This document shows positions 644 through 1,237 of a DNA stretch of 64,000 nt, piece by piece. Both the position numbers and the translations under genes were made by a program. The stretch is taken from sequence record PQ438393.1. One strand, given 5' to 3'. The notes beneath the pieces were generated by a model. The model had not been told where the DNA came from. It ran no database searches and saw nothing but the letters and a program-made list of their open reading frames with translations. Within the stretch, counting starts at the first letter, position 1. Each line of letters begins with the position of its first letter. The stretch is from Escherichia phage vB_Eco_J-01.

Positions 644-1237
644 ATGAATATTGAAGATCAAAAAGTACGAGCTTTAGAAGTGTTACGTATGTGCCAACTG
701 GTAGATCCGTTTGCAATTGTAGCTGGCGGCGCTGTACGTGATTGGCGATTAGAAACACCTGCGCAAGATATTGATATTTACTTGCGTATGCCTAACCACA
801 ATACACTCGTATTAGTAGAGAAATTTTTGATGTTGGGTGTTGGTGCACGTAATGTTAAACAACTTACTAAGCAAACAGAACACACTTATGCCGAACTACC
901 ACATTTGAAATGGGTATTTGAAGCATACTATAAAGACCTTAAATTTAATTTTATGATCATGGAAGAGGGTGTACGCAGTGAAATAGTATGGAACTTTGAT
1001 GTAGCTATTTGCCTGTGTTACTGGGATGGTCAAAATTATGTATATCATCCAGATTTTGAATTTGCACTGAAAACTAATATTTGTACTATTAATCACCGAT
1101 ACACAGGTAAAGAAGCACACGTCCGTAAAATGGCAGAACGTTTCCCTATGTTCCGCTTTGTAAAAGACGTTTTCATTCCCAAAGAACCAGAAGTACGTAC
1201 ACTGGATTCATTTAACAACGAAGAATTTAAGATTTAA
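644..1237 (+). CDS. small Pol-beta-superfamily nucleotidyltransferase, CCA-adding/poly(A) polymerase head-domain-like
   Basis: N-terminal GGAVRD followed by DIDIY, the signature of class II tRNA nucleotidyltransferase head domains; 197 aa with no body/tail domain. Confidence 0.55.
   Translation: MNIEDQKVRALEVLRMCQLVDPFAIVAGGAVRDWRLETPAQDIDIYLRMPNHNTLVLVEKFLMLGVGARNVKQLTKQTEHTYAELPHLKWVFEAYYKDLKFNFMIMEEGVRSEIVWNFDVAICLCYWDGQNYVYHPDFEFALKTNICTINHRYTGKEAHVRKMAERFPMFRFVKDVFIPKEPEVRTLDSFNNEEFKI

Follow-up and report, generated by a model that had tools for sequence, protein, structure and literature searches.

The DNA analyzed here was a 64,000-nucleotide stretch from Escherichia phage vB_Eco_J-01 (PQ438393.1), which we refer to as the window. 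Near its start lies a plus-strand gene (644-1237, stop codon included) that begins with ATG, encodes a 197-aa head-only, class II-like nucleotidyltransferase (NTase), and is the sole long open reading frame (ORF) at that place. An AGGAG Shine-Dalgarno sequence could be read from the DNA 5 nt ahead of the start codon (634-638, plus strand). Directly upstream is the 3' end of a phage DNA polymerase gene (1-506, plus strand), which was assigned via phrog_16667 (DNA polymerase I) and the annotation of relatives. The NTase stop codon and the next gene are separated by 43 nt, within which a consensus scan located a strong, near-consensus σ70-like promoter (1241-1270, plus strand; TTGACA-18-TATTAT) that matched at 11 of 12 positions and had an upstream TG, giving an extended -10 element. 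Because this putative promoter sits just past the NTase stop codon, the polymerase transcription unit may end with the NTase gene.

The next gene (1281-1679, plus strand) encodes a conserved 132-aa protein with a (β4-α)×2 fold. This neighbor is possibly a Whirly-like single-strand nucleic acid binder and is a possible partner of the NTase. It is followed by the gene for a 315-aa SSB-like protein with a DFDDDIPF motif (1696-2643, plus strand), past which we observed a terminator-like hairpin (2666-2685). In the SSB-like protein, the canonical C-terminal tip DFDDDIPF was followed by 15 additional residues (APIGLQYGRNFLHCF); in Phapecoctavirus-like relatives, the protein terminated exactly at IPF. 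The extension was odd because the free C terminus of the tip is known to matter for partner binding in E. coli SSB.

The first 4 kb of the window were 97 to 99% identical to the DNA of Justusliebigvirus (Stephanstirmvirinae) E. coli myophages such as JLBYU50, BME3, alia, and PaulScherrer. The order of the genes in BME3 was four glycosyltransferases, primase/helicase, endonuclease, DNA polymerase, NTase, hypothetical 132-aa protein, SSB, and methyltransferase, after which came tail genes on the opposite strand. The sister genus Phapecoctavirus kept the order of polymerase, NTase, 130-aa protein, and SSB-like protein, and its NTase, which was labeled "putative tRNA nucleotidyl transferase / poly(A) polymerase," was 37% identical to that of the window. 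Several close relatives (alia, PHB05, W22, SD2, and PaulScherrer) carried an additional insertion of about 495 nt in this 4-kb region relative to the window. The annotation of these relatives in the matching region included an HNH endonuclease that was absent from the window, where positions 507-643 are intergenic, and its position placed it between the polymerase and NTase genes. In some relatives, the DNA polymerase was annotated as split or intein containing.

The NTase matched PHROG 1614 (nucleotidyltransferase) over residues 7 to 193 with an E value of 3.4e-34. A precomputed Pfam match of the 99%-identical protein cluster pointed to PF26128, a model that was absent from the results of our local Pfam scan. 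The protein was 99 to 99.5% identical to phage proteins deposited in GenBank, and near-identical proteins from more than 50 phages were labeled "nucleotidyltransferase" or "putative tRNA nucleotidyl transferase/poly(A) polymerase." A functional guess for this gene was already in the databases, and its novelty is below what the earlier note on this DNA had implied. Our literature search found no paper characterizing the family and no biochemical data for any of its members.

To define the family, a word-indexed protein search was of little use. It returned two relatives only, and the rest were found when 1.84 billion representatives were searched exhaustively with HMMER. The exhaustive search yielded at least 470 family representatives (clustered at 50% identity) at an E value of ≤1e-3, almost all of which were 170 to 220 aa in length. 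We aligned 125 sequences that were 23 to 44% identical to the window protein. G28, G29, D42, and D44 were invariant in all 125 sequences, and Q6, A27, A30, R32, D33, W34, Y82, and K162 were conserved in ≥90% of them. No second Pfam domain was found in the 10 longest members, and the additional length of these members was probably due to miscalled starts.

The family was nearly all viral, and IMG/VR gave 97 matches. A pattern scan of one genome from each of 185,579 prokaryotic species produced 11 confirmed matches, all of which were located on contigs of metagenome-assembled genomes (MAGs). Two of the matches were on contigs of 131 to 148 kb, a length typical of phages, and six of the 11 consisted of motif A only or were on contigs of <1.4 kb. 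The matches therefore provided no informative bacterial context. In Vibrio phage ICP1_2006_A, the homologue (piece L100, 4959-5541) was split into two overlapping ORFs of 139 and 60 aa, and the tblastn match covered query residues 3 to 126 only. The ICP1 gene is either a frameshifted, decaying copy or a still shorter functional form. Because it is split and is located outside any replication module, we set it aside as uninformative about context.

We then examined the catalytic site. The alignment placed the GGAVRD sequence, which forms the glycine turn of motif A, at residues 28 to 33 (codons 725-742, plus strand) and DIDIY at residues 42 to 46 (codons 767-781, plus strand), with D42 and D44 as the metal-binding carboxylates. 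The hG[GS] turn and the [DE]h[DE]h pattern of the next strand were present as A27-G28-G29 and D42-I-D44-I. The first glycine of the GG pair was located 14 residues ahead of the first aspartate of DxD, which is the same offset as that found in E. coli Cca (G7 to D21). The likely third carboxylate is E93 (codon 920-922, plus strand), a proposal that draws on the Pol-beta superfamily pattern (PMC7291057). Specifically, F92-E93-A94 conformed to the h[DE]h pattern on a model strand spanning residues 88 to 96, and the aligned site was E in 70 sequences, D in 15, N in 16, and another residue in 24 (n = 125).

An AlphaFold2 model built with the family alignment had a pLDDT of 93 and a pTM of 0.85 and contained the alpha/beta nucleotidyltransferase core fold. 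Searching the PDB sequences with the single NTase sequence was not informative. When the family profile was used to search the PDB, it matched class II CCA-adding enzymes and poly(A) polymerases only, always over the helix-GGxxRD-DxD region (E value of about 3e-4). Other enzymes with a Pol-beta fold ranked below class II (TENT5B, 8.0; Pol X, 7.5; MenT1, 6.6; alarmone synthetases and antibiotic nucleotidyltransferases, 5 to 7). The nearest structural relatives of the NTase all act on RNA.

These results established the fold, the two-metal site (the GG turn, D42, D44, and probably E93), and a minimal architecture that is conserved across a large, virus-restricted family. The GGAVRD/DIDIY match is not a chance one. 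Because the GG and DxD residues are invariant in the family, the NTase is probably catalytically competent, and we rejected a pseudoenzyme on the same grounds. The earlier note had described a 197-aa ORF with GGAVRD and DIDIY signatures as a stand-alone head domain related to class II CCA-adding enzymes and poly(A) polymerases, and this description held, including the intact catalytic carboxylates. The two observations on which the earlier note had made its assignment depend, a predicted Pol-beta fold and catalytic aspartates in a proper alignment, were both obtained. The same note had also described the protein as devoid of neck, body, and tail domains. The absence of the body and tail was confirmed, and of the neck only a short stub remains.

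The comparison with complete class II enzymes revealed what the head lacks. These enzymes have motifs A to E in an N-terminal catalytic core, and motif D (EDxxR) serves as an amino acid template that selects CTP and ATP (PMC11784652). In E. coli Cca, GGAVRD starts at residue 7, DRD at residue 21, RRD at residue 90, and EDPLR at residue 130. When hhalign was run against single E. coli Cca or PcnB sequences, motif A was aligned and nothing beyond it. A low-stringency hhalign run against a shallow Cca profile produced a longer alignment of low confidence (hhalign probability of 61%). For motifs B and D, we also set a register manually on a shared D-x-[TS]-I-[NC] strand and the next proline, and this register agreed with the hhalign result. 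In this low-confidence alignment and the manual register, RRD fell opposite N117-F118-D119, and the EDxxR helix fell opposite residues ~153 to 168.

At the motif B position, the NTase has NFDVAIC (N117-C123; codons 992-1012, plus strand) aligned with RRDLTIN of E. coli Cca. Both arginines are gone, and the family consensus is x-F-x-x-S-I-C. A direct count found RRD in 0 of 125 family members. The motif D position is occupied by a remodeled, motif-D-like helix (Y153-P168; codons 1100-1147, plus strand), which in the family reads Y...[DE]-[KP]-[HY]-[IV]-x-K-[MI]-x-x-[KR]-[FY]-P. It has no conserved arginine at the template position, and K162 within it is 95% conserved. EDxxR was found by direct count in 7 of 125 members, which we took to be chance level, and it was absent from the window protein. 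The low-confidence hhalign alignment also placed the GxxDL region opposite F138-L142, where the conserved glycine and aspartate were absent, and motif E would fall past the folded part. The tRNA-binding neck, body, and tail domains were not present, and the protein ends after the short neck remnant. Judged from the alignment, the systematic loss of motifs B and D from the family appears to be what is new here relative to the searchable literature.

With class II tRNA nucleotidyltransferases and PcnB (PF01743; PDB 3aql, 4wby, 3h37, 1miv, and 1ou5), the NTase shares the helix followed by GGxVRD and DxD with identical spacing. The β-strand of motif B was kept (TIN in Cca and SIC in the NTase family), and so was a helix at the motif D position that ends in [KR]-F. 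In contrast to the ~400 to 470 aa of class II enzymes, the NTase has 197 aa, with a neck stub only. It also differed in its family-specific conserved residues (Q6, W34, Y82, Q102, and K162), in its restriction to viruses, and in its acidic pI, which was 6.1 for the NTase and had a median of 6.4 in the family.

GenBank labels of the "tRNA nucleotidyl transferase" kind imply a canonical, complete CCA-adding enzyme, and motif A, the head fold, and the annotation of relatives agree with such a label. However, no other residues could stand in for the D and R of EDxxR when class II enzymes were put through selection (PMC11784652), and the NTase lacks this motif. The scores of profile searches were also low. 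In a single-sequence Pfam scan, PF01743 (PolyA_pol head) scored 17.4 bits, which is below the cutoff of 23, and at an E value of ≤0.01 this model matched just 19 of 125 family members. The NCBIfam CCA equivalogs NF009814 and TIGR03671 gave about 13 bits against cutoffs of 281 to 290. We disfavor this explanation and consider it highly improbable. Because RRD and EDxxR are missing and the body and tail are absent, the NTase is best described as a class II relative that is not a member expected to make CCA canonically.

Other small nucleotidyltransferases provided further points of comparison. NP_344798.1 (PDB 2la3), a 191-aa stand-alone bacterial "CCA-adding enzyme head domain," was 9% identical to the NTase, and no common Pfam family was detected. 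A CCA-enzyme head fold was also found in head-only proteins of 165 to 215 aa from Autographiviridae and other phages, which are annotated as nucleotidyltransferase or TRNT and include fHe-Kpn01 Gp22 and proteins of Pectobacterium phage PP2 and Dickeya phage Ninurta (Foldseek E values of 1e-7 to 1e-9 and TM scores of ~0.55 to 0.65). The Foldseek search against viral models identified many head-only nucleotidyltransferases of 165 to 230 aa, including those of T7-like phages, which are not known to carry tRNA genes. The head-only proteins of the Autographiviridae type belong to another sequence family, which is set apart by an identity of ~14 to 20% and by absence from the tblastn results. They are described in the literature as uncharacterized (PMC8472413, PMC7291057), and a review that covered the TRNT genes of the Autographiviridae assigned no function to them (PMC8472413).

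Gp22 of the Klebsiella phage fHe-Kpn01, a 182-aa CCA-enzyme-like, head-only nucleotidyltransferase, was toxic when expressed in E. coli (PMC7291057). This toxicity, which among head-only phage nucleotidyltransferases has been shown for Gp22 only, and the abundance of 165- to 230-aa head-only proteins in T7-like phages raise the idea of a host takeover enzyme. Such an enzyme would add nucleotides to the 3' ends of host tRNAs or mRNAs, as MenT or a poly(A) polymerase does, and would thereby block translation or trigger RNA decay. Judged by its absence from the tblastn results, however, Gp22 belongs to another sequence family, and the 16 tRNA genes and RNA repair cassette of the phage seem to fit a strategy of safeguarding translation, not one of attacking it. 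We regard host takeover as a rather improbable function. The MenT/AbiEii (DUF1814) toxins are likewise small Pol-beta-fold proteins, and they act on tRNA acceptor ends without tRNA-body-binding domains. Membership in this group was rejected, as neither DUF1814 sequence membership nor an adjacent antitoxin was found.

The small size of the NTase, its acidic pI, the absence of a nucleic acid-binding domain, and the loss of the base-templating and ribose-binding motifs would also fit a substrate that is not a polynucleotide, as would the restriction of the family to viruses. In that case, the NTase might transfer a nucleotide to a small molecule or protein, or it might synthesize or modify a nucleotide signal (in anti-defense, for example), as do other minimal Pol-beta-fold enzymes such as ANT, MNT, and alarmone synthetases. 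The matches to such enzymes fell clearly short of those to class II RNA enzymes, and the sole Pfam match was PolyA_pol. Furthermore, the genes around it in the viral loci surveyed included no conserved partner or target. There was also no match in PADLOC, which covers defense system proteins and says little about anti-defense. A non-polynucleotide substrate therefore seemed quite unlikely to us.

To examine the genomic neighborhood more broadly, we called and clustered ORFs in 80 viral loci that contain diverged members of the family. A primase-helicase cluster was located near the NTase gene in 56 of the 80 loci and a DNA polymerase in 44 of the 80, almost always on the same strand. The order of the NTase gene and the replisome genes varied, and several loci had small ORFs only around the gene. 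No universally adjacent partner gene was identified among the 80 loci, and the downstream 132-aa gene was restricted to a Stephanstirmvirinae-like clade (12 loci). One family member was found in the 46.8-kb Zobellviridae phage 384E50-1, where it is located near helicase, polymerase, and FEN genes and where there are no tRNA genes.

The neighborhood data suggested a transferase linked to replication, whose substrates would be the 3' ends of DNA or primers or else a nucleotide precursor used to modify DNA. In the window, the NTase gene directly follows the DNA polymerase gene and precedes the genes for the possibly Whirly-like binder and the SSB-like protein, and the Zobellviridae copy has replication genes around it as well. 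The missing RRD of motif B is also consistent with this idea. We attribute the discrimination of NTPs from dNTPs by class II enzymes to the ribose-contacting motif B, and an enzyme that has lost this motif may accept dNTPs. In addition, the BASEL authors speculated that another phage nucleotidyltransferase, which is located among replication genes, serves DNA modification (PMC11990801). On the other hand, the gene order is variable, several loci show small ORFs only, and the linkage may reflect shared timing of expression. The absence of a DNA-binding domain and the RNA substrates of the nearest structural relatives also argue against this idea, and a role in replication is, in our judgment, somewhat unlikely.

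The remaining evidence came from the RNA genes of the phage. ARAGORN identified a cluster of 16 tRNA genes on the minus strand (42391-45136), and all 16 end in NCCA within the gene. The earlier note had claimed that every tRNA gene it could fold encodes its CCA, which proved correct, and the additional claim that the phage tRNAs do not need de novo CCA addition was supported by the same count. A second region on the plus strand (51476-53366) contains an RNA repair cassette that consists of a calcineurin-like metallophosphoesterase (51476-52027), an Rnl1-type RNA ligase (PF09511; 52029-52961), and a P-loop AAA_33 kinase (52962-53366). The cassette is similar to a tRNA repair pathway of Pnkp and Rnl1 in which Pnkp is split, and it seems that the phage invests in tRNA or RNA repair. 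In T4, the end-healing and sealing activities of Pnkp and Rnl1 repair the damage caused by an anticodon nuclease.

The cassette is located about 51 kb from the NTase gene and forms a separate module. RlaP of jumbo phages is a Pol-beta nucleotidyltransferase that was proposed to restore lost RNA nucleotides and whose gene shares a genome with an RNA ligase gene (PMC7824862). We rejected a ligase-associated, RlaP-type assignment for the NTase, as the RNA ligase gene is this far away and no RNA ligase cluster was present in the 80 viral neighborhoods.

Attack on tRNA ends is a feature of several host systems. Cas12a3 cleaves the CCA tail of tRNAs, and the authors of that study stated that viral countermeasures were unknown (PMC12851939). 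The CCA end is also the target of toxSAS enzymes, which pyrophosphorylate it, and of MenT toxins, which lengthen it. Even in genomes whose tRNA genes encode CCA, the CCA enzyme offsets the activity of CCA-trimming RNases such as RNase T, and the repair of CCA ends is the accepted reason for keeping a CCA enzyme in such genomes (PMC11784652). Host attack on tRNA 3' ends thus gives the repair idea a rationale, albeit a circumstantial one.

On the evidence above, our most likely reading, which we hold tentatively, is that the NTase adds nucleotides to RNA 3' ends independently of a template, that it selects these nucleotides in a non-canonical way, and that it most plausibly tops up damaged tRNA acceptor ends. 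The protein would be a class II tRNA nucleotidyltransferase/poly(A) polymerase head domain with a neck stub, and it would attach a nucleotide to the 3'-OH at the end of an RNA. Its likeliest substrates would be the single-stranded acceptor ends of host and phage tRNAs that are missing terminal residues. Nucleotide selection would occur by some means other than an EDxxR template, and the pocket would presumably be formed by the remodeled helix with K162 together with W34, Y82, and Q102. Because such an enzyme would take no measure of the tRNA body, it would simply fill in or tail ends, perhaps with the help of a partner protein, and would not be a true CCA-adding enzyme. It would be made with the replication or middle genes and would complement the phage tRNA genes and the ligase/kinase/phosphatase cassette.

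The presence of 16 tRNA genes and an Rnl1-type RNA repair cassette in the phage supported a role at tRNA ends, as did the existence of host systems that damage or block the tRNA CCA end (Cas12a3, toxSAS, and MenT). Several results weakened it. E. coli already possesses Cca, one family member is found in a phage without tRNA genes, the RNA ligase cassette is not adjacent to the NTase gene, and the usual neighbors are primase-helicase and DNA polymerase genes. The earlier note had proposed tRNA 3'-end repair or RNA tailing from the ancestry of the fold only. That proposal lost ground with the counts for RRD and EDxxR, with the absence of the tRNA-binding body and tail, and with the acidic pI, the tRNA-free phage, and the replication gene neighbors.

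A more specific proposal is that the family restores or re-tails tRNA 3' ends as a counterdefense against attack on the CCA tail by Cas12a3, exonucleases, or acceptor-end toxins. The non-canonical nucleotide pocket would again operate without recognition of the tRNA body. We consider this proposal a long shot, but if it is true, it would answer the question of how viruses could resist CCA tail cleavage (PMC12851939).

If tRNA 3' ends are indeed what the NTase acts on, no smaller working relative of the CCA-adding enzymes would be known, and the NTase would show how little protein such chemistry needs. It would also be a candidate for a viral response to immune systems, discovered only recently, in which the CCA tail of tRNAs is cut or blocked. 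A function in replication or host takeover would instead represent a new activity for a widespread phage family. The present value of the analysis is a sharpened hypothesis and not a discovery, as the gene was already annotated as a phage nucleotidyltransferase.

Several other genes were noted in the window and in its relatives. Two minus-strand ORFs of the window (45883-47616, 577 aa; 47688-48581, 297 aa) matched two BME3 genes in length and position. In BME3, these genes are annotated as nicotinamide phosphoribosyltransferase and ribose-phosphate pyrophosphokinase, an NAD salvage pair of the kind proposed to counter NAD-depleting defenses. The same pair was present near the NTase fragment of ICP1. 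Outside the region that corresponds to the window, BME3 contained fragments of ~145 to 190 aa labeled "histidyl tRNA synthetase," "tRNA amidotransferase," and "putative aminoacyl-tRNA synthetase" (L083, 24786-25805; L085, 22408-22980 and 28003-28536). BME3 also carried a dTDP-rhamnose pathway alongside the four glycosyltransferases upstream of the replication genes. These fragments and glycan genes may represent further translation- or glycan-related accessory functions.
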